This document shows positions 1-41,349 of a stretch of 64,000 nucleotides of DNA, in pieces (position 1 is the first letter of the stretch; each line of letters starts with the position of its first letter). The notes below the pieces were generated by a model. It ran no database searches and was not told the DNA's origin. It saw only the letters and a list, made by a program, of their open reading frames with translations. The position numbers and the translations under genes were made by a program. Source of the DNA: Minisyncoccota bacterium (lineage in GTDB: Bacteria > Patescibacteriota > Minisyncoccia > UBA6257 > 2-01-FULL-56-20); NCBI GenBank assembly GCA_031291905.1, contig JARLIC010000137.1, forward strand, positions 51,762 through 115,761, in the 5' to 3' direction.

Positions 1-534
1 GGCGCCGCATGCCCATGGAGTAAGGCTTCGACTCGTAAGCCGGAAGCTTGCTCTTGATGGCGAGGCGCGTCTTGACATCGGTCGTGTATCCATTCTGGTC
101 CACGACGGGCTCGAAGATGATTTCCACCGTGACGGTTCGGGCTTTGGCGTCTCCGGGCCGCTCCTGGCAGTCCTTGGAAACCAAGCTCAGCCGGCTCTTG
201 AGTTCAGCATTGACGCTCCCCGCGTCCAGGATTGCAAGCGACCCGAAGTCGACCTCATGCAGCGAACTTGCCACGCTTCACCTCTTTCGCCTGATTCTTT
301 GAAGGACTTAATGCCAGACAACCCGACGATTTTCGGAAATCTTGTCAAATTTTCGCCGCTTCCACTTGCAGTACAGCCTATGTATCTTGTATGGTCGACT
401 GTGACGACGGTGCGAACTTTGGTACGCAGAGCGAACGAGGCCGGTTTGAGAGCCGGCTTCGCAAGGACTTTGGAAAGTTTCTGGCTCGACCCGATGCTTC
501 GTCGCCCCGTTGGCCGAATGCTAGCTGAAAATCT

Positions 535-1432: not shown

Positions 1433-1693
1433 GCGTCATCCTCCGTCGCTGTCATCACACCGGGGGTGGGTTGTTTGCCTCTCCACGAGATCCTAATAAA
1501 TCATGGGCCGCAATGCAAGCAATTCGCTCTTGACGATCGGCTTCGGAGTATGAATCGGACGCGTCAGCATTGTTCGATGTCGACGCATTTCGTTTCGCAG
1601 TACAGCCTTGCGCCGAAGGTGCATTTGAAAGAAATATCCTAGAAAACCGGATGATTCATGCCTTGGCATCTAGAGTGCATCATCGCGTCAAGC

Positions 1694-2008
1694 TCATTCT
1701 GGCTTGCCATCCGGCCCCGATGCAGCTTTATTTTGCCTATTGACCTCTCTTTCTATGGCAAGATTTAGATAGTGCTCGCACTTCTTTAGATCCTTTAACG
1801 TTGGCTCGCCGATCTTGCTTCCCGCTCGGATGGCGTATTTGCAGATGTTGTACGTCAGGCCGTCGAGACTCTGAAGCAGATGAACGGGCTGGATCGGATG
1901 TCCGCATTTCTTGCATTCAGCGTCCGGGATGCGGTAGTGGGCGGGGCAGCGGTCGTCAGTTTCGGGCGATCGTGTTGTAGTTGGCGACAAAGCCAGCCTC
2001 CTTGTCAT
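1694..2008 (-). CDS. DUF3310-like phage protein
   Basis: C-terminal HY..ECKKCG...LQSLDGLTYNICKYAIRAGSK....DLKKCEHYLNLAIE matches the DUF3310 pattern. Start is uncertain (ATG at 2008 or TTG at 1990); both overlap the 3' end of the upstream gene. Confidence 0.5.
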   Translation of the reverse strand: MTRRLALSPTTTRSPETDDRCPAHYRIPDAECKKCGHPIQPVHLLQSLDGLTYNICKYAIRAGSKIGEPTLKDLKKCEHYLNLAIEREVNRQNKAASGPDGKPE

Positions 2009-3293
2009 AGATGAACGCCTCGGCGGCGCGAATATTGCCGACGTACCCGTTCTCGCTGTGCCAGGCGTCGGTGGCGCACAGGGACGGAATCCCCCGCACG
2101 CGGACGCCCGCGAACTCGTCACTCTTGAAGCCGTGAAAGTGCCCCGTCTTGAACTCACGCCACGTCGTCTCGGCCCAGTCCTGCTTCCGCTCCTGGGCCA
2201 TGATCAAGGGGAGCTTCTCGCGTTTGATCTTGTCGCCGTGCGTGTAGCCCAGCAGGTTGACGCCGTACCGGACGTACTTGCGGGATTTCAGGTCGCAGTC
2301 GACCTCCACCCGTGCGTCGTGGCGGAAATGGGCCGCGATCGTCCGTGCCAGGTGGTACGACGTGTGCCAGTCGTGGTTGCCGGGGACCAGGACGACCTTG
2401 ACCTTCGGGCAGCGGTCGGCGAACAGCTCGATCGCACCGACGTTACAGTCCATGCCGATTCCAACCATCTTGGGATACCGACCGTCCAGCTCCAGTTGCG
2501 TGCCGGCGGTGGTCGTGTTGCGGGTCGCATCGACGTGGAAGTGGTCGCTCCCGATCAGGAAGACGACCTCTTCGACGTCGTACTTGTCGAGACGACCCCA
2601 GAGTTCCTCCACCGCTTCACCGAAGACGCGTTCGGCGATCCGCAAGTCGTAGTTCTCGCCCGTCTCGGGCGCCCAGCACAGCTTCCCGAGGTGCAGGTCG
2701 GGGATGTTGATCTCGGCCAGGACGCCGCTGTTGGTTTTGCGTGGGGGCAGGGGAGGGCGGCTGAAGAAAGGAGCCTTCTCCGCCATCCGTGCGAAGAACG
2801 CTTCGGATGCGTCGGTCAACTGCTTGGGGATCAGCCGTTCCAGTTTCAACGAGACCCGCCAGAGGCCGTGGCGCTCGGCCTCGTCCGCACCGTTCCCCTT
2901 CATCTTCATGACGACTTCCCAGGCCGTGCATCCCCAGGTCTTGACGCGCCACGTCGCCAGGTCGACTTCGGCGTAGGCGACGGCGTCTTCCAGGGTGCGG
3001 ATGCGGCGGGGGCTGGCGAGTTCCAAACTCTGTTCGTCGCCGGTTTCCACGATCTTGGATCGCATCCCGTCCGCCGTCGGCTCGTCGATCGCGGCGTCGC
3101 GGTCCAGCTTGTGAAAATAGGCAAGAGCGGCGCTAGCCGAACAGTTGGCTTGCGAGCCGCCGACCCGGCACGAGCCGCCGGACTCGCGGACCTGACGAAG
3201 AATCCTCTTCTGATCGGGCGTCAACTTGGCCAAGGTGCAATTCCTTTTGGTGGGACCAAAAGCAAGGCGGATTGCAAGAAATAAGTATTGCAA
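1956..3293 (-). CDS. calcineurin-like metallophosphoesterase with ~200-aa N-terminal extension
   Basis: Metallophosphoesterase motifs are present in order: DLHLG, GSDHFH, VPGNHDW, GYTHGDK, GHFH. The start is more likely the TTG at ~3230 (MAKLTPDQKRIL, preceded by AAAGGAA). Confidence 0.75.
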   Translation of the reverse strand: MQYLFLAIRLAFGPTKRNCTLAKLTPDQKRILRQVRESGGSCRVGGSQANCSASAALAYFHKLDRDAAIDEPTADGMRSKIVETGDEQSLELASPRRIRTLEDAVAYAEVDLATWRVKTWGCTAWEVVMKMKGNGADEAERHGLWRVSLKLERLIPKQLTDASEAFFARMAEKAPFFSRPPLPPRKTNSGVLAEINIPDLHLGKLCWAPETGENYDLRIAERVFGEAVEELWGRLDKYDVEEVVFLIGSDHFHVDATRNTTTAGTQLELDGRYPKMVGIGMDCNVGAIELFADRCPKVKVVLVPGNHDWHTSYHLARTIAAHFRHDARVEVDCDLKSRKYVRYGVNLLGYTHGDKIKREKLPLIMAQERKQDWAETTWREFKTGHFHGFKSDEFAGVRVRGIPSLCATDAWHSENGYVGNIRAAEAFIYDKEAGFVANYNTIARN

Positions 3294-23190: not shown

Positions 23191-24690
23191 TTAGGAGCCG
23201 AGCGAAAGCTGGACGAAGGGGGACGTCTTGTAGATCACGCCCGAGGGGGACGTCGACTGACGCGGCCCCATCCACAAGGACTTGCCGTCGTGGCGCTGCT
23301 TCCAGCGATACGCGATCTGGTCGGTGTCGAAGAGGAACTGTTCGCTGATCGCGACTTCGATGCCCGAGCGGTTCGCCACGCCGTACTGCGTGGGGTCGAT
23401 GAGCATGATGTCGCCGGTGCCCGAGACCTCAAGCTTTTCGGTCGTGAAGCGGATCGGCAGGCCGAGCAGGGTGCCCGCAGCCTGATACCGCATGCCGGCC
23501 GACTTGGTCCCGGCGATACTGGAAAGCATCGCGGCCTGGGTGATCTGTGAGTTGGGCTGGAACGCAAGGGTGGTGCCGTCGCGGACGTTAAGAAGTTGAC
23601 TGTAGGTCGCCTGGTGGGCGATGAACATCGCGTTCTTAAGACATGACATATCGAACAAGGCCAACATCGCCTGGAGGTCGGCGAGCTGGATCTTGTTCTG
23701 CAACAGGCGGGTCGCCGTGAGCAACGCCGGGCTCTGGCGGATTCCGGTCGGCTTGCCGGCTCCGTCGCCGTTCAGGAACACGAAGTCCGTCTTGTACGCC
23801 ATCGCCTTCAAAAAGAGGCTCTGAAGGACGGTGGCAGCCGAGATGTAGTTGTCGGCGACGAGGTCGCGGGAGATCTGCGTGTAAGCAGTCTGGTCGACGA
23901 TTTTGTACGTGATCTCGCGAAGCTTCGCGTCGGAAGCCTGGCGTTGGGTCGACTCGCCCTTGTAGAAGACCTGGATGCCGGCGGTCGCCGACGTCTGGCC
24001 GATGCCGGGGGCGAAGTACTGGTCCAGGGCGGGCCAGTGGACTTCGTTGGTCGCCCCGACCGGGATGTTGAAGGCGTACGGCTCGATCAGCGACTCTTCC
24101 ATCGCGATCTCGTTGTAGCCTCCGAGAATCTCCGGCTTCACGAAGTAGCCATAGGCGGAGCCGCCGGAAAGCGATTCACTGCCGGCGCGAGCGACGGCGG
24201 GCGACGCGGTCGACATGGAGCCGTCCCATGTCCGCTCCAGCTTGAAGTGCTCGACGAGCCGCTGGTCGGCGTGGTCGCGTTCGCCCTGAGACGCCGACGG
24301 GCGGGTTCGATAGAGCAGCCCGAGGATTTCGCCAAGGCCGCGACCGATCGCCTTGCCGTCCACGCCGCGATCGGCGGGGGATTCGGTGTGCTCGATCGTC
24401 CCGTTGAACGGAACGCCGTCGTCATCGAACTCCATGCCCTTGGACGGAGGGCCTTTACTGGGCTTATTGCCGCCGCTCTGGAGCGAACGCTTGAGGTCTT
24501 CAAGCTCCTTCGTGATCCCGGCGGTGGCGTCACTGAGTTGGCTGCGGACCATCGCGCTGACGTGGGCCTGAGCGTCGGATTCCTCGGCGAATCCGTACTC
24601 GATGTACCCTCGTGCGACCTTCTCGTCCGCGATATCGATCACATCGCCGGCCTTGTGCTCGTCGATGTTCTTCTTGAGCTTCACAAACAT
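23191..24690 (-). CDS. HK97-fold capsid protein paralog with N-terminal coiled-coil (delta-like) segment
   Basis: DLVADNYISAATVLQSLFLKAMAYKTDFVFLNGDGAGKPTGI matches the HK97 major-capsid signature. Start MFVKLKK at 24690. Confidence 0.7.
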   Translation of the reverse strand: MFVKLKKNIDEHKAGDVIDIADEKVARGYIEYGFAEESDAQAHVSAMVRSQLSDATAGITKELEDLKRSLQSGGNKPSKGPPSKGMEFDDDGVPFNGTIEHTESPADRGVDGKAIGRGLGEILGLLYRTRPSASQGERDHADQRLVEHFKLERTWDGSMSTASPAVARAGSESLSGGSAYGYFVKPEILGGYNEIAMEESLIEPYAFNIPVGATNEVHWPALDQYFAPGIGQTSATAGIQVFYKGESTQRQASDAKLREITYKIVDQTAYTQISRDLVADNYISAATVLQSLFLKAMAYKTDFVFLNGDGAGKPTGIRQSPALLTATRLLQNKIQLADLQAMLALFDMSCLKNAMFIAHQATYSQLLNVRDGTTLAFQPNSQITQAAMLSSIAGTKSAGMRYQAAGTLLGLPIRFTTEKLEVSGTGDIMLIDPTQYGVANRSGIEVAISEQFLFDTDQIAYRWKQRHDGKSLWMGPRQSTSPSGVIYKTSPFVQLSLGS

Positions 24691-24843
24691 GGGGTTCTCC
24701 CGATGTTGTCGTGGGTGTTGACAACGCTCGGCGCGGCGAATCTCCAGTCCGCCGGGGAGTCCGCCGCATCTCGAAGACGGGTCGGGCCGGGAACCTGATT
24801 GCTCGTGCGCTGACACGAAACAAAAACGTGTATTAAGATGTCG

Positions 24844-25884
24844 TTACTTGAGAACGACGAAGGGGCCGGCGGTCTGCGAGCCGTCGGCGATCGTGACGGG
24901 CTGCCTCCAGAGCGGCGAGCCGTCGACCCGGAACTTGAACCGAAAGACCGTACTGTCGGTGTCGAACATGAACTCGTCGGCCGACCGCGTCTCGACGAAC
25001 TCGCCGAGTGACCCACAGGTCACGCTCATGTCGGGGTCGCCGTTATTGTCCACGGTGCGGGCCACGAGGGCGTACTGGCTCCAGTCGCCGACGATCAAAT
25101 CGCCTTGCGTCCCGAGTGCGGGGCACTGTTCGACGGGCAGGAGCGGGCGGCCCTTGAGCAACGGGTACGGGTTGCCGTACATCCCCATCGGCATGTACAG
25201 ATTCGCGGGCCAGCCGGTCGTCGTGGCCACGGCGTCGAGCTTCAGCAGCGTGTCGTCGTTGCACATCCACGCCGCGTTGCGACGGCAGTACGGCCAGAGC
25301 CGGCTCCACATCGTGTCGACGTCGGCCTGTGCGATGTTGTTGGAGCCGTTCCGCGTGACCTGGATGCTGGAGTTGGCCGCGATCACGCCGAGCGGGTGAG
25401 TGATCCCCTTGCCGTTGATCATCGACTCGACGACGGCGTACTGGATTTCCTGGCTTGCGGCGTAGTCCAACATTCGTTCGACGAGCGGGGCGTCGGCGAG
25501 CAGGTCGTTGCTGAACGGCGTGGAAAAGACCATGGCTCGCTTGGGGACGAACTTGATCATCGCCGCCGCCGGCTGGCTGGCGTCCGGCGTGGCCGACTTG
25601 TCGTCGGTCGTTCCCTGCCATCGAACCTTGATGCCGCCGAAGCGAGAACCGGCGACGCGGCTGGTTTCGTCCAGTGCGGGCCACTCGGCTTCGTGCTTGT
25701 TGGTCGTCAGGAAGAGGCATCGCGCCAATGGGCCGTCGATCGCACGAGCCTTGTCCCACACCGACTGGAACAGCTCGGTGTCGAGCAGGAAGCCGCCGTT
25801 GGCCCCGCCGCCGTACGTATTCAGTGCGCGGGTGACGTCCGCAAAGTAACGGACGATCGGATTTCCGCTCTGTGCGGTCGTCAT
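24844..25884 (-). CDS. HK97-fold capsid protein paralog (no delta domain)
   Basis: NDLLADAPLVERMLDYAASQEIQYAVVESMINGKGITHPLGVI carries the same HK97 signature in a second, different sequence. Confidence 0.7.
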   Translation of the reverse strand: MTTAQSGNPIVRYFADVTRALNTYGGGANGGFLLDTELFQSVWDKARAIDGPLARCLFLTTNKHEAEWPALDETSRVAGSRFGGIKVRWQGTTDDKSATPDASQPAAAMIKFVPKRAMVFSTPFSNDLLADAPLVERMLDYAASQEIQYAVVESMINGKGITHPLGVIAANSSIQVTRNGSNNIAQADVDTMWSRLWPYCRRNAAWMCNDDTLLKLDAVATTTGWPANLYMPMGMYGNPYPLLKGRPLLPVEQCPALGTQGDLIVGDWSQYALVARTVDNNGDPDMSVTCGSLGEFVETRSADEFMFDTDSTVFRFKFRVDGSPLWRQPVTIADGSQTAGPFVVLK

Positions 25885-32886: not shown

Positions 32887-33318
32887 TTAGGCGCCGACTT
32901 CGGTCCAGCGTTCGTCGTCCCAATCGCTCGTCATCGCCTCGTAGGTTCCGTCGTGCTGGGCCGGCGGCGGCGGCTGGATATTGTGCTTGGCCCCGTAGAT
33001 CGCCATCGCACGAACGACGAGCGGCGGCGGATTGCCGGTGGTCGCGGTCAGCGTGTCCCACCACTGGTGCGGGCCGTCTCCCTCGATCGCGACCTGGCGG
33101 CAGAAGTCGCACCGGAGGGCGGCCAGATCGTAGCGTCGCAGGAGTCGGGTTGATCGCTGTGTCGACCGGGTGCAGCGAGGGCAGGGGGGGCCGTCGTGCT
33201 TGATCACGACCTGGACTTCATCGTCCGGCACGTCGGCTTCGACGGCTTCAATAATGGCGTCTTCGGCATCGCGGGGCTTCGGGGGACGGCCGCGACGTTT
33301 GGTCTCGATCGTGCTCAT
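32887..33318 (-). CDS. basic zinc-ribbon protein (KRRGRPPKP; CPRC...CDFC)
   Basis: Overlaps the TerL stop by 4 nt. Confidence 0.45.
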   Translation of the reverse strand: MSTIETKRRGRPPKPRDAEDAIIEAVEADVPDDEVQVVIKHDGPPCPRCTRSTQRSTRLLRRYDLAALRCDFCRQVAIEGDGPHQWWDTLTATTGNPPPLVVRAMAIYGAKHNIQPPPPAQHDGTYEAMTSDWDDERWTEVGA

Positions 33319-35864
33319 GCTACCTCTATGTCCGTGTCATGCCACGAGTCGGGCCACCAGCGGGGGTCTTGCCAATCTTGCTGGGCGGCTCGATCTTTTT
33401 CGATCTTCTCCAGCCACGCCCGCTCCAGCCGTTCGCGTTCCATGCGTTCGCGTTCTTCGGGGGGGATGGCGGCTGGGCCACGCTTCTGGACTTCAAGAGA
33501 GGCGTAGGCGAGCACGTCGACTGTGTCGTCGTGGGCACCGTTAGGAAAGGTCATCAACTCGGTTTCGAGGTTGTCGAGTTCCGGGTGATGCTTGGGAAAC
33601 CAAATCTGACCGGCTTCCATGCGTATCTGGGCGTCTACGCTTCGGGCTATTTTATCGACGTTCCCGGTCTTGAGCGACTGGATCGTCAAGCCTTGCTTTC
33701 GAGCCGCTTTAATGACTAGGTTTTGCGCTGCAACATCTTCGATTCCACAATACGACGCCTTGTGCTTGTCCATCATCGCACGAATAGACGGGACGAGCTT
33801 ATCGCCGGTCATCTGTTCGCGATGCATGTCAAGAAGAATCAGGTCGCTGTCCGGCGTCACAGCCCACGCGCCGATGCATGTGTAGTCCGCACTGGTTCTT
33901 GTAGAAAATGCGAGGTCTACCGCCAGGAAAATTCGGCAGTGATCGAGGCTGAATGATCGTGTTTCAAGCCTGATGTAGTTTTCGTGCCGATCATAGTATT
34001 TGAAATCTGATCGCCGAAATAATCCACCACCCTCGGGGGAGGGGCGTTGCTGATACACAGAATTAAAAAGATGTTTTTGGGTTGCTTTGACACGAAGCAG
34101 GTATTCTTCGTTGAAGTGCTCGGGCCAGAGGGCTTCGCCTCGCTTGCGTCCCATCGGATCGTTATCTTCGGCCAAAGCCGGAAGATTATAGACGACCCAT
34201 TCCTCGCCCGTCTCTTTCGCTCGATCCAGGATCTTGCCGACCATGTCGGCTTCATGCCACCTCTGCATGACGACGACGATCGACCCACCGGGCTCAAGCC
34301 GCGTGTACGCGGTTCCGACGTACCAGTTCCAAGCCTTCTCGCGAAGCGTCTCGCTGAACGCATCCTCTTGCTTCTGGACGTCGTCAAGCACAAGTAGGTG
34401 CGCTCCCTTCCCGAGCAACGCGCCCCCCATGCCGACGGTCTGCATTCCGCCGCTGTGGCCCTTGAGCATCCAGCGATCGGCGGCCTTGCTATCCTGGCGG
34501 ATCTTGACTCCGAAGTATTTCTCGCCGTCCTCTTCGATCAGGTCGCGTACCTTGCGTCCCCACTCGGAAGCGAACTCAGCCTCATACGACGCCAGGATCA
34601 CTTTCTTGTCCGGGTTCCTCCCCAGATACCACGCCGGGAAGTACATCGACGTCATTGTGCTATTGCACGTCGGAATCATCGAGCGGCCACACAAAAACAT
34701 GTGGCTCGGTGAGTCGACTTCGATGCAAACAGTGTCGCCGGTTCCGACGTACGTGGCGCCGATGTATCGGTTCGGCTGCTTAACGCCGTCGCGACATCGC
34801 GGCGACTTCCGAGGCGACTTGCAGGCCCCTGCTTTATAGAACATGACGCGGAATTTGGGTCCGCAATCTTTTCCATAAAGCGTAGCTCTTCCAAGTATCA
34901 GGCTCGCCTTGGTTCCGAGTGAACGAACGAGTTCAAGGCAGCCTTCAGCCAATGCTAGGTCTGTCGAGCAAAACTCGACCTGGCCATCCGGAGCGACATG
35001 GCCATCCGTGTCGCAAAGCCCACGAAGCAACTCAAACCTTTGGCTCTCGCTCGCTCGCAGGTATTGGTTCGGGACATGCTTGTTCTTCAGCAGGCCGAGT
35101 TCGCGAAGCTTTCCGCCAAGGCCCATGACCCCAAATACGTTTTCGACCGACCGATCTCTCGTCTCGTAGCCGAGCCGCGAAAGTTCTTCCTTGAACCACT
35201 CAGTATCCAGGCCGTTGCACGTGATGCCGCAGTTCTCGGAGCAGCCGTTTCCAAGCCAAACACCGAGGACGTACGGGTCGATCGGCAAGTCGGCATCGGG
35301 AAGCTGAAGTGCCCCCTGCTTGCGGACCATAAGCCTCTTGTTTCGAGGCTTCGAGAGATAGGCGGTGTCTTTGACGTGGAATATATCGCGAGTCTTCGCC
35401 TTGCTGACGACCCACTCGTGATTTTGGTCGGCGAAGATTTCATCGCCGTCGTCGGTTGTTACTCGGTAGATCGGGCGGTTCTTCCAGACGGGAGACTTTG
35501 CCACAACGTTACAGGGCTGACCGTCTTCATTAAAGACCTGATCGCCCGGCTTCAGTTCCCCTATCGTCGTCCAGCCGGAAGGCGTCGGGATCGGGGTGCT
35601 CAGGGCTAAGGCTTTCCCGTGCCTCGGTGGCACCGTCACAATTAATCGTTTGATCCGGCCCTCCGCCACATCCATCATCTTCTGCGTCAAGAAGAGAAGA
35701 TGTTTCGCCGGCTTCCACTGAAATTCGCTCGAAAGATGTGCATAGTGCGCGGGGCTCAGGTTCGCTATATGCTTCTCTAGGCTGAATCGCTCCTGCGAGT
35801 TGAGTGAGGCCGCCAAGGAGCGTAAGGACTCGATCTGTTGCGGCGTCTCCATTGAGGTGATCAA
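33315..35864 (-). CDS. terminase large subunit interrupted by an intein
   Basis: N-terminal ATPase region runs through the Walker A up to VTVPPRHGK. It resumes as STMTSMYFPAWYLG.. after ~317 inserted residues. C-terminal RNase-H-like nuclease (FLAVDLAFS...DSDLILLD). Confidence 0.85.
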   Translation of the reverse strand: MITSMETPQQIESLRSLAASLNSQERFSLEKHIANLSPAHYAHLSSEFQWKPAKHLLFLTQKMMDVAEGRIKRLIVTVPPRHGKALALSTPIPTPSGWTTIGELKPGDQVFNEDGQPCNVVAKSPVWKNRPIYRVTTDDGDEIFADQNHEWVVSKAKTRDIFHVKDTAYLSKPRNKRLMVRKQGALQLPDADLPIDPYVLGVWLGNGCSENCGITCNGLDTEWFKEELSRLGYETRDRSVENVFGVMGLGGKLRELGLLKNKHVPNQYLRASESQRFELLRGLCDTDGHVAPDGQVEFCSTDLALAEGCLELVRSLGTKASLILGRATLYGKDCGPKFRVMFYKAGACKSPRKSPRCRDGVKQPNRYIGATYVGTGDTVCIEVDSPSHMFLCGRSMIPTCNSTMTSMYFPAWYLGRNPDKKVILASYEAEFASEWGRKVRDLIEEDGEKYFGVKIRQDSKAADRWMLKGHSGGMQTVGMGGALLGKGAHLLVLDDVQKQEDAFSETLREKAWNWYVGTAYTRLEPGGSIVVVMQRWHEADMVGKILDRAKETGEEWVVYNLPALAEDNDPMGRKRGEALWPEHFNEEYLLRVKATQKHLFNSVYQQRPSPEGGGLFRRSDFKYYDRHENYIRLETRSFSLDHCRIFLAVDLAFSTRTSADYTCIGAWAVTPDSDLILLDMHREQMTGDKLVPSIRAMMDKHKASYCGIEDVAAQNLVIKAARKQGLTIQSLKTGNVDKIARSVDAQIRMEAGQIWFPKHHPELDNLETELMTFPNGAHDDTVDVLAYASLEVQKRGPAAIPPEERERMERERLERAWLEKIEKDRAAQQDWQDPRWWPDSWHDTDIEVA
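34662..35612 (-). mobile_element. intein with LAGLIDADG homing endonuclease inserted in the terminase P-loop
   Basis: Hint N-blocks ALALSTPIPTPSGWTTIGELKPGDQVFNEDG and ..IFADQNHEWVV. Two LAGLIDADG motifs: YVLGVWLGNGCS and LLRGLCDTDGHV. C-terminal block ..VCIEVDSPSHMFLCGRSMIPTCN followed by S. Confidence 0.7.
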
Positions 35865-36345
35865 TCTCGATCCTCTGCACGAACATCCCGTGGTACTTGG
35901 CGAGTTTGTCCATCGCCTCGGCCGCGTCGTGGAACTTGACCTCGATCGCGCCGCTCGGGTGGATCTTGAGATCCTTGATCAGGTTGCCCTTCTTGAGCTT
36001 CTTGACCTTCTTCAGGTCCAGCACAGGCTTCTCGATCGGCTCGCCGCTGGAGTCGAGCTTGACGTTGCCTCTGGCGTCCACGTCTTCAACGAACTCGACG
36101 AACTCCATCACGTCCAGTGAGGCGATCGTCGACAGTCGTGCCAGAACCTCGGCGACCGGCATCGCCCCGGATTCTTCGAGCTTCTGTTCGAGGTATCCGC
36201 TGATCACCCTGCTTTTGAGTAGTTGAAAGGCGGCCGACTCAGGATTCGCGTACCCCGCCATCTTCGCGGCTTTGACCGCGTTGTCTTTGGCGTCGCCAAG
36301 GTAGTAGTGGACGAACAGACGTTGGCGGTGGTTGAGCGTCGACAT
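35530..36345 (-). CDS. terminase small subunit
   Basis: N-terminus LNHRQRLFVHYYLGDAKDNAVKAAKMAGYANPESAAFQLLK fits the terminase small-subunit pattern. The 3' 335 nt overlap the TerL ORF in another frame. Confidence 0.65.
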   Translation of the reverse strand: MSTLNHRQRLFVHYYLGDAKDNAVKAAKMAGYANPESAAFQLLKSRVISGYLEQKLEESGAMPVAEVLARLSTIASLDVMEFVEFVEDVDARGNVKLDSSGEPIEKPVLDLKKVKKLKKGNLIKDLKIHPSGAIEVKFHDAAEAMDKLAKYHGMFVQRIEIDHLNGDAATDRVLTLLGGLTQLAGAIQPREAYSEPEPRALCTSFERISVEAGETSSLLDAEDDGCGGGPDQTINCDGATEARESLSPEHPDPDAFRLDDDRGTEAGRSGL

Positions 36346-41037: not shown

Positions 41038-41040
41038 TGC

Positions 41041-41349
41041 TTACTCAGTTCGCTCGATCGCCGCTATCGCCCACATCAGACATTGCTCAAGATTCGTCAG
41101 CGCCGATGACTGCTCACGCGACGCGGATGAGTGGTCGACGATGGACAAGGCGAGATTCTTGGCATCGTCCCGAAGTAACGCGAGAGGGATAACCTTGTCA
41201 GCCCGAACAGTGAGCTTTGCGGCGAACCGCTTCTCGACTTCTTCGCGGAATCGCTCGGCGCGAGTCTTTCCGTCATCGATATGAACAGCGTAGATGGGTG
41301 GCGGGTTATCTCTCACCGAACTTGGAGCCGGGTACACAGGGTTCATCAA
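41041..41349 (-). CDS. hypothetical protein
   Basis: ORF. Confidence 0.35.
   Translation of the reverse strand: MMNPVYPAPSSVRDNPPPIYAVHIDDGKTRAERFREEVEKRFAAKLTVRADKVIPLALLRDDAKNLALSIVDHSSASREQSSALTNLEQCLMWAIAAIERTE

Follow-up and report, generated by a model that had tools for sequence, protein, structure and literature searches.

The 64,000-nucleotide (nt) stretch of contig JARLIC010000137.1 considered here (the window) carries on its minus strand the large terminase gene (TerL) of an uncultured tailed phage. Within this gene lies an in-frame insert of 317 amino acids (aa), which we read, with a probability of about 0.82, as a class 3 (Trp-Cys-Thr) intein with a LAGLIDADG homing endonuclease at the classic site in the terminase P-loop. 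The original prediction had placed an intein at 34662-35612 without giving a strand; the coordinates are exact and correspond to TerL residues 85-401. The sequence match to solved class 3 inteins, together with 3,807 related cluster representatives and the unbroken junctions of intein-free homologues, places the observation far beyond chance. The element is otherwise an ordinary member of the well-described class 3 terminase inteins, being uncommon in its penultimate cysteine and in a probably crippled endonuclease.

Class assignment and proposed splicing pathway

The 2,550-nt open reading frame (ORF) of TerL is free of interruptions, and the insert separates the Lys and the Ser of the Walker A motif (PPRHGK/ST), the split already recognized in the original prediction. 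It reads ALALSTPIPTPSGWTT...FLCGRSMIPTCN, with VTVPPRHGK before it and STMTSMYFPAWY after it, beginning with ALALSTPIPTPSGW and ending with GRSMIPTCN, after which the C-extein opens with STMTS. In the Pfam annotation, Terminase_6N (PF03237) is found at aa 402-622, only downstream of the insert, Terminase_6C (PF17289) at aa 648-789, and LAGLIDADG_3 (PF14528) within the insert itself. The predicted spliced protein, of 532 aa and with the junction peptide ...PPRHGK-STMTSMYFPAWYLGR, can be aligned over its full length with homologues of 520-530 aa that have no intein, and it has the ATPase and RNaseH-like nuclease domains of a phage large terminase, with Walker A restored on excision. The parts of the gene are as follows.

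33315..35864, minus strand: TerL precursor ORF, 849 aa, comprising N-extein, intein and C-extein (ORF list, Pfam)
35613..35864, minus strand: N-extein, aa 1-84, ending with the first Walker A half VTVPPRHGK (homology to the N terminus of the intein-free protein P0123 and in-frame upstream sequence of relatives)
34662..35612, minus strand: probable class 3 intein, Ala1 to Asn317, 317 aa (homology, fold, alignments and empty-site allele)
35298..35612, minus strand: N-terminal part of the Hint domain, intein aa 1-105 (residues 1-70 align with 6RIX and 6BS8)
Start of the intein, minus strand: block A, ALALSTPIPTPSGW
35418..35420 and 35412..35414, minus strand: His65 and Trp67 of block B, ADQNHEW (both invariant or nearly so)
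34761..35297, minus strand: LAGLIDADG homing-endonuclease domain, intein aa 106-284 (Pfam LAGLIDADG_3; Foldseek matches to PI-SceI, PI-PfuI and I-DmoI)
35238..35273, minus strand: LAGLIDADG motif 1, YVLGVWLGNGCS, aa 114-125, with Asn122 (AAC) at 35247..35249
35001..35030, minus strand: LAGLIDADG motif 2, LLRGLCDTDG, aa 195-204, with Asp203 intact at 35004..35006
34662..34760, minus strand: C-terminal part of the Hint domain, intein aa 285-317 (Cys296 and Thr315 conserved as given below)
34725..34727, minus strand: predicted nucleophile Cys296 of block F, TVCIEVDSPSHMF
34668..34670, 34665..34667 and 34662..34664, minus strand: Thr315, Cys316 (TGC) and Asn317 (AAT) of block G, MIPTCN
33315..34661, minus strand: C-extein, Ser+1 (34659..34661; the Walker A Ser) followed by the remaining ATPase and the RNaseH-like nuclease (Pfam; the near relative at locus L041 is contiguous at the junction)

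Class 3 inteins are defined by the absence of an N-terminal nucleophile together with a Trp-Cys-Thr triplet at positions B:12, F:4 and G:5; their +1 residue is usually Ser or Thr, and most members are located in ATPase P-loops, phage terminases included (PMC2807308, PMC5050341). In the window intein, position 1 is Ala (codon GCC), as had been proposed, in place of the Cys, Ser or Thr nucleophile of a class 1 intein, and the triplet is complete, being W67 at B:12, C296 at F:4 and T315 at G:5. Moreover, the block B His65 (B:10), the C-terminal Asn317 and Ser+1 are all present. The penultimate His, a residue typical of class 3 that does not define it, is replaced by Cys316, and the Cys-Asn end read in the original prediction is encoded by TGC AAT. 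Conservation of these residues was followed in an alignment of 198 members (197 relatives and the window), in a first alignment with 94 relatives and in a 64-sequence alignment. In the largest alignment, every one of the 197 relatives has Cys296 and Thr315 does not vary, while His65 and Trp67 are each kept in 93 of 94 relatives and are both invariant among the 64 sequences; Ala1 is shared by 90 of the 94 relatives of the first alignment and by 134 of 164 representative domains.

The closest solved structures belong to the same class. A phmmer search against all Protein Data Bank (PDB) sequences gives as best matches MchDnaB1 (PDB codes: 6RIX and 6RIY; E 2e-23) and MsmDnaBi1 (PDB code: 6BS8; E 5e-22, more exactly 4.8e-22), these DnaB mini-inteins aligning to the ends of the query (residues 1-70 and 286-317) and PI-SceI to its central LAGLIDADG region. 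For 6BS8, the authors described a class 3 intein in the DnaB P-loop with Cys118 as the initiating nucleophile and Ser+1, splicing being abolished by the C118A mutation (PMC6195587), and for MchDnaB1 a Cys124-His65-Thr143 triad was described (PMC7664689). Also, an AlphaFold2 model built with 64 homologues has a mean predicted local distance difference test score (pLDDT) of 96.3 and a predicted template modeling score (pTM) of 0.93, and its N- and C-terminal segments together form the horseshoe beta fold of a Hint domain. In Foldseek searches against the PDB, the full length of the model is matched by PI-SceI (E 3e-19, TMq 0.75) and its Hint portion by the class 3 DnaB inteins (TMt 0.84-0.89), with further matches to PI-PfuI, I-DmoI and the Hedgehog autoprocessing domain. 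A failure to predict a Hint fold had been named in the original prediction as an outcome that would speak against an intein, and the fold is predicted here with a pLDDT of 96.

The same prediction had suggested a class-2/3-like mechanism. Its class 3 half is borne out by the triplet, His65, Ser+1 and the nearest structures, whereas its class 2 half conflicts with Ser+1 and with the Cys at F:4. In a class 2 (KlbA-like) intein, the +1 residue would attack the N-terminal junction directly and no branched intermediate on block F would be formed. Ala1 is also found in KlbA inteins; however, that class is characterized by Cys+1 and by Asp at F:4 and does not have the Trp-Cys-Thr triplet (PMC2807308), whereas the window intein has Ser+1, Cys at F:4 and the complete triplet, and its closest homologues are proven class 3 inteins. 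A class 2 mechanism is therefore hardly credible for this element.

By analogy with the characterized class 3 inteins, a class whose mechanism involves an obligate Cys nucleophile in block F and two branched intermediates in succession, a sequence of steps can be proposed for the window precursor. The 849-aa protein would be unable to bind ATP, its Walker A motif being split between Lys84 and Ser+1. Cys296 (F:4), activated by His65 and Thr315 and with Trp67 buttressing His65, would attack the Lys84-Ala1 peptide bond to give a thioester branch, from which the N-extein would move to the hydroxyl of Ser+1. Then, Asn317 would cyclize without the usual His assistance, releasing the intein, and an O-to-N acyl shift would restore PPRHGKST and yield an active TerL of 532 aa.

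A comparison with the individual known systems agrees with the class 3 assignment and delimits what is particular to the window copy. MsmDnaBi1 (PDB codes: 6BS8 and 6OWN) and MchDnaB1 share with it the start ALAL.TP.PTP.GWTT, His65 and Trp67, the block F Cys, the Thr-x-Asn end, Ser+1 and an insertion point within an ATPase P-loop, after its Lys and before its Ser. However, both are mini-inteins without an endonuclease, with a bacterial helicase as host and a penultimate His, and MsmDnaBi1 has the redox partner Cys48, whereas the window intein has Ile48, Cys316, a full LAGLIDADG domain and a phage terminase as host. The class 3 prototype, the full-length MP-Be DnaB intein of Mycobacteriophage Bethlehem (Tori et al. 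2010, PMC2807308), compared here by its published residue positions, has the same spacing (His65, Trp67, Cys320, Asp324, His328, Phe330 and Asn341, against H65, W67, Cys296, Asp+4, His+8, Phe+10 and Asn+21 in the window), as well as a Thr-x-Asn end, Thr/Ser at +1 and a P-loop location; it differs in Pro1, in the penultimate His340 and in a helicase-like host protein. No match to the window intein was found in positions 30000-52250 of the Bethlehem genome (AY500153), the first 30 kb not having been searched, and the annotated DnaB-like helicase of this phage is only 273 aa long. The class 3 LAGLIDADG inteins of actinobacteriophage terminases and Cas4 proteins (PMC5050341; bioRxiv 10.1101/2025.01.02.630785) have the same architecture, the same kind of host gene, the same 'classic' P-loop site between the invariant Lys and the following Thr/Ser, and a full-length identity of 37-42%, but they differ at the penultimate Cys and at Asn122. 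Moreover, the window phage is unrelated to cultured phages (TerL identity at most 37%), and its TerL is of the Terminase_6 type, for which the mycobacteriophage survey reported inteins only at the C-motif (PMC5050341). Finally, PI-SceI (the VMA1 intein; PDB codes: 1EF0, 1VDE and 1LWS) is the best overall structural match, with Hint and double-motif LAGLIDADG domains, although it is a class 1 intein (Cys1, Cys+1), is about 17% identical, has an extra DNA-recognition region and has both catalytic Asp residues.

Intein limits, empty site and mobility

The limits of the intein could be fixed with homologues that do not have it. With the conceptually spliced 532-aa protein as query, 4,721 TerL homologues were found at E<=1e-10, most of them 440-530 aa long and uninterrupted at the junction, which in intein-free proteins is an unbroken PPRHGKST or PPRHGKSE. 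For example, the intein-free P0123 (60% identity) reads VTFPPRHGKSTISS and P0124 reads ITFPPRHGKSTITS. In the locus that carries P0123 (L004), an HNH_3 endonuclease gene at 1693..2580 directly follows the intein-free TerL with a slight overlap.

The original prediction had called for a search for intein-free alleles in relatives, and one was found in the closest TerL relative, P0122, which is 80% identical at the amino acid level, has no insert and is encoded on a short JGI metagenome contig (3300036652; locus L041). The 40 nt upstream of P0122 translate to LIVTVPPRHGKSTMTSMYFPAWYLGRNPDKKVI, and the junction of L041 is unbroken, reading LIVTVPPRHGKSTMTSMYF (LIVTVPPRHGK-STMTSMYFPAWYLGRNPDKKVI), with the same flanking residues as in the window. 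In nucleotides this junction is CCACCTCGTCACGGCAAA/AGTACTATGACGTCGATG, and within positions 1..100 of the contig the codons CCT CGT CAC GGC AAA/AGT ACT stand against CCG AGG CAC GGG AAA/AGC ACA in the window, the differences being synonymous. Since L041 lacks the insert and has identical flanks, the limits of the intein are fixed as Ala1 to Asn317 with Ser+1, and realignment keeps Ala at position 1 and cannot place there the Cys or Ser that, according to the original prediction, would have made it a standard class 1 intein. Judged by its sequence, this near relative has its homing site unoccupied, and the L041 junction is a candidate target of the homing endonuclease.

An exhaustive search of 1.84 billion cluster representatives showed how large the family is, with 18,347 proteins among these representatives at E<=0.001 and the 3,807 mentioned above at E<=1e-30. 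The hosts include many terminases, actinobacterial dCTP deaminases and PD-(D/E)XK/Cas4-type nucleases, and wherever the host motif is readable the insertion almost always follows ...GK and precedes Ser or Thr. The best cultured-phage matches are the terminase of Gordonia phage YungMoney (42%) and Mycobacterium phage terminases and Cas4 exonucleases (37-39%), groups of actinobacteriophage inteins that have been surveyed (Kelley 2016, PMC5050341; Gosselin 2025, bioRxiv 10.1101/2025.01.02.630785). The size of the family and the existence of these surveys mean that this kind of element is already well known. As the window copy shows, class 3 inteins at the P-loop are also common outside the catalogued actinobacteriophages, in terminases of distant phages that are uncultured.

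As for mobility, the intein and its host gene have discordant histories. In locus L008, three intein segments are 78%, 66% and 91% identical to the window and both exteins 48%, whereas in locus L006 the extein is closer (66%) and the intein more distant (52-53%). The two features expected of a mobile intein are thus found, namely an intein-free close relative (L041, 80%) and a discordance between intein and host-gene phylogenies, and this combination of discordance and empty site fits a past horizontal movement by homing. The window copy is probably no longer moving because of Asn122, which is discussed below.

The lineage of L007, L008 and L009, which has the most similar intein (72% identity), shows an arrangement of its own. 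In L007 (4001..6405), L008 (4001..6435) and L009 (760..3194), TerL is divided over two ORFs that overlap by 4 nt and are read in different frames; the ATPase and the intein are encoded by the first (507 aa) and the Terminase_6C nuclease by the second (294-304 aa). This arrangement is kept in three contigs from different samples and may represent a naturally split terminase or a programmed frameshift.

The penultimate cysteine and the endonuclease

Cys316 is one of two substitutions that set the window copy apart from its family. Of the 197 relatives, 182 (92%) have a penultimate His, encoded as CAC or CAT in those with available DNA, so that two substitutions are needed to reach the TGC of the window. 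No other penultimate Cys was found among the first 120 close matches and 30 viral contigs. In the wider set, a Cys-Asn end occurs in 6 of 166 representative intein domains, the other non-His residues being Arg (5), Ser (4), Leu (2) and Gly (1). Each of the six Cys-Asn domains has as its host a full-length terminase without interruption, in one case from a different Pfam family, and the Cys variants are not mutual nearest neighbors, the nearest being His or Arg variants. For example, P0272 (Cys) is 74% identical to P0308 (Arg), and the Arg codon CGC is a one-step intermediate. Of 105 terminase inteins, 10 have a penultimate residue other than His, compared with 0 of 38 inteins in dCTP deaminases; the difference does not reach significance (Fisher p = 0.06). 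In the MP-Be DnaB intein, mutation of His340 had 'minimal effect' (PMC2807308), and phage inteins are known to vary at this position (PMC5050341); a literature search on a penultimate cysteine in inteins found nothing. Given the recurrence in intact terminases, the result with His340 and the known variation among phage inteins, Cys316 is read here as a rare, recurrent and tolerated minor variant, which may at most slow the cyclization of Asn317.

A different view of the same residue is that the penultimate Cys is an adaptive, recurrent feature of terminase P-loop class 3 inteins, a disulfide or metal trap added to the class 3 chemistry. Cys316, near the active site, would pair with Cys296 in a reversible disulfide, or bind a metal jointly with Cys296 and His65, and splicing would be conditional, so that terminase maturation would be gated by redox state or zinc. 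There is a precedent in MsmDnaBi1, whose block F Cys forms a regulatory disulfide (Cys48-Cys118) with a non-catalytic Cys 11-12 Å away and also binds zinc (PMC6195587, PMC7360933). In addition, Cys is the commonest non-His penultimate residue and arose repeatedly in terminase inteins, and the window intein is the most Cys-rich of the 198 family members, with 13 Cys (4.1%, against a median of 2.0%). However, the presence of Arg, Ser, Leu and Gly at the same position is what neutral drift at a weakly constrained site would give, the Arg codon CGC links His CAC and Cys TGC so that Cys could be an endpoint of drift, and with Ile48 the window intein lacks the Cys48 partner of the Mycobacterium smegmatis protein. 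Conditional splicing thus appears an unlikely explanation. If it were true, splicing and with it DNA packaging would be subject to redox conditions or zinc in the infected cell, and the Cys richness would be part of the adaptation. As a recurrent variant, the penultimate Cys bears on how far class 3 inteins depend on His at this position and on a possible conditionality of splicing brought about by a second thiol in the active site.

Six Cys residues occur only in the window copy (positions 124, 128, 200, 225, 264 and 316), and a CxxxCxxxC run (positions 124, 128 and 132) directly follows the mutated LAGLIDADG motif. The 532-aa extein has three Cys in all.

The second substitution lies in the endonuclease. 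The two LAGLIDADG motifs of the original prediction are both present and in frame and, together with the Pfam match (PF14528) and the structural matches to PI-SceI, PI-PfuI and I-DmoI, they describe a double-motif LAGLIDADG fold, in which two motif helices belong to a pseudo-dimeric alpha-beta-beta-alpha-beta-beta-alpha arrangement. At position 122, the last acidic position of motif 1, the window has Asn (AAC), so that WLGDG becomes WLGNG and motif 1 is left without its acidic residue, while motif 2 keeps Asp203. Among the 197 relatives this position is Asp (GAY) in 183 and Asn in 11. LAGLIDADG enzymes have two overlapping active sites, to which each motif supplies one metal-binding acid, and for this reason the change of Asp122 to Asn is expected to abolish cleavage of at least one strand. 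The endonuclease is then probably inactive or a nickase. Literature searches on residues D218 and D326 of PI-SceI were empty, and those on nickase activity gave no directly citable statement.

The original prediction had also raised the possibility of a decaying intein. This does not hold for the splicing domain and holds in part for the endonuclease, through Asp122 to Asn. The window deviates at 2 of 60 columns conserved at 85% or more, only at positions 122 and 316; this equals the family median, so the copy is not generally degraded, and the two deviating positions are both functional residues. In comparisons with four relatives, nonsynonymous divergence (pN, 0.05-0.34) is far below synonymous divergence (pS, 0.6-0.8) in both the Hint and the endonuclease parts, which at the sequence level indicates long-term purifying selection on both. 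The ORF is intact, the spliced product would be of normal length, and the window encodes a coherent phage. No tailed phage can do without TerL, and ATP binding requires an unbroken P-loop, so that splicing competence of the window intein is the parsimonious inference.

In the opposite scenario, the change of His316 to Cys, perhaps with other changes, would have abolished splicing, so that TerL would not function and the phage would be a defective remnant. In favor of this, cyclization of the Asn is normally assisted by the penultimate His (PMC2807308, PMC5050341), and the endonuclease already has a substitution of the inactivating type. Nonetheless, the residues essential for class 3 splicing are intact (H65, W67, C296, F306, N317 and Ser+1), the ORF is uninterrupted over its 2,550 nt and surrounded by a full structural module, the deviation from consensus is at the family median, and Cys-Asn recurs in other intact terminases. 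A dead intein is accordingly very unlikely, more so than conditional splicing.

Several points weigh against the assignment of the insert as a class 3 intein of the kind described. The chemistry, the splicing competence and the endonuclease impairment are all inferred for the window copy, the last of these from general knowledge of LAGLIDADG catalysis. The penultimate His is kept in 92% of the family, and its loss may be costly. Also, synonymous sites are saturated against all relatives with available DNA, which leaves room for a recent relaxation of selection. Lastly, the window allele is found 100% identical and without polymorphisms in three contigs, which come from consecutive runs (SRR23300978-80) and are possibly not independent.

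Overlap with the small terminase gene and phage context

The N-extein is missing from the database entry of the window TerL (P0121, 729 aa), which starts inside the intein. In this region TerL overlaps the small terminase gene (TerS), read in another frame.

35530..36345, minus strand: TerS ORF, 271 aa (Pfam Terminase_2 at aa 4-162 only)

The last ~110 codons of TerS overlap the N-extein and the first 27 intein codons (35530..35864, 335 nt). Within the overlap, the GC content at third codon positions (GC3) is 0.73 in the TerL frame against 0.44 in the TerS frame, the head of TerS having 0.84, and this codon-position pattern fits the TerL frame and not the TerS frame; the frame of the N-extein agrees with it. 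The TerL start codon is probably TTG at 35864 or ATG at 35852. Comparable overlaps of 215-320 nt are present in L005, L007 and L008, and the entries P0001-P0003, P0126 and P0130 also start inside the intein. Over all these entries, P0121 included (loci L001 and L005-L008), the start lies at intein residues 17-37. These truncated entries are without the N-extein, half of Walker A and intein block A, whereas an in-frame upstream extension restores the N-extein, giving ...GK/AL(A/V)LDTP or ...PPRHGK/ALALDTP.... Gene finders start TerL inside the intein because they avoid the overlap with TerS, and this annotation problem, brought about by a long TerS/TerL overlap in the phage group, hides the intein in database proteins.

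A six-frame search of the window with the family profile found this single intein and no second one. Two plus-strand ORFs over the intein (34998..35609 and 34234..34839) were considered as antisense endonucleases and rejected, having no Pfam match. No tRNA gene was found within the window, and a scan of 185,579 species genomes gave no close TerL relative.

From its gene content the phage looks complete. Besides TerS and TerL, the window has genes for a portal, two capsid-family proteins and a tail completion protein, and further genes for a DNA methylase, a sliding clamp, a single-stranded DNA-binding protein (SSB), an RNA ligase and an Acb2/Tad1-like protein. The two capsid-family genes are adjacent on the minus strand (23191..24816 and 24844..25884), encode 541 aa and 346 aa and both match Pfam Phage_capsid. 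Finally, a 101-aa gene at L001 4159..4464 (approximately 41040..41345 of the window, minus strand) adjoins the SSB gene and has a Pfam match to the hairpin of Acb2/Tad1, a family of anti-defense sponges.

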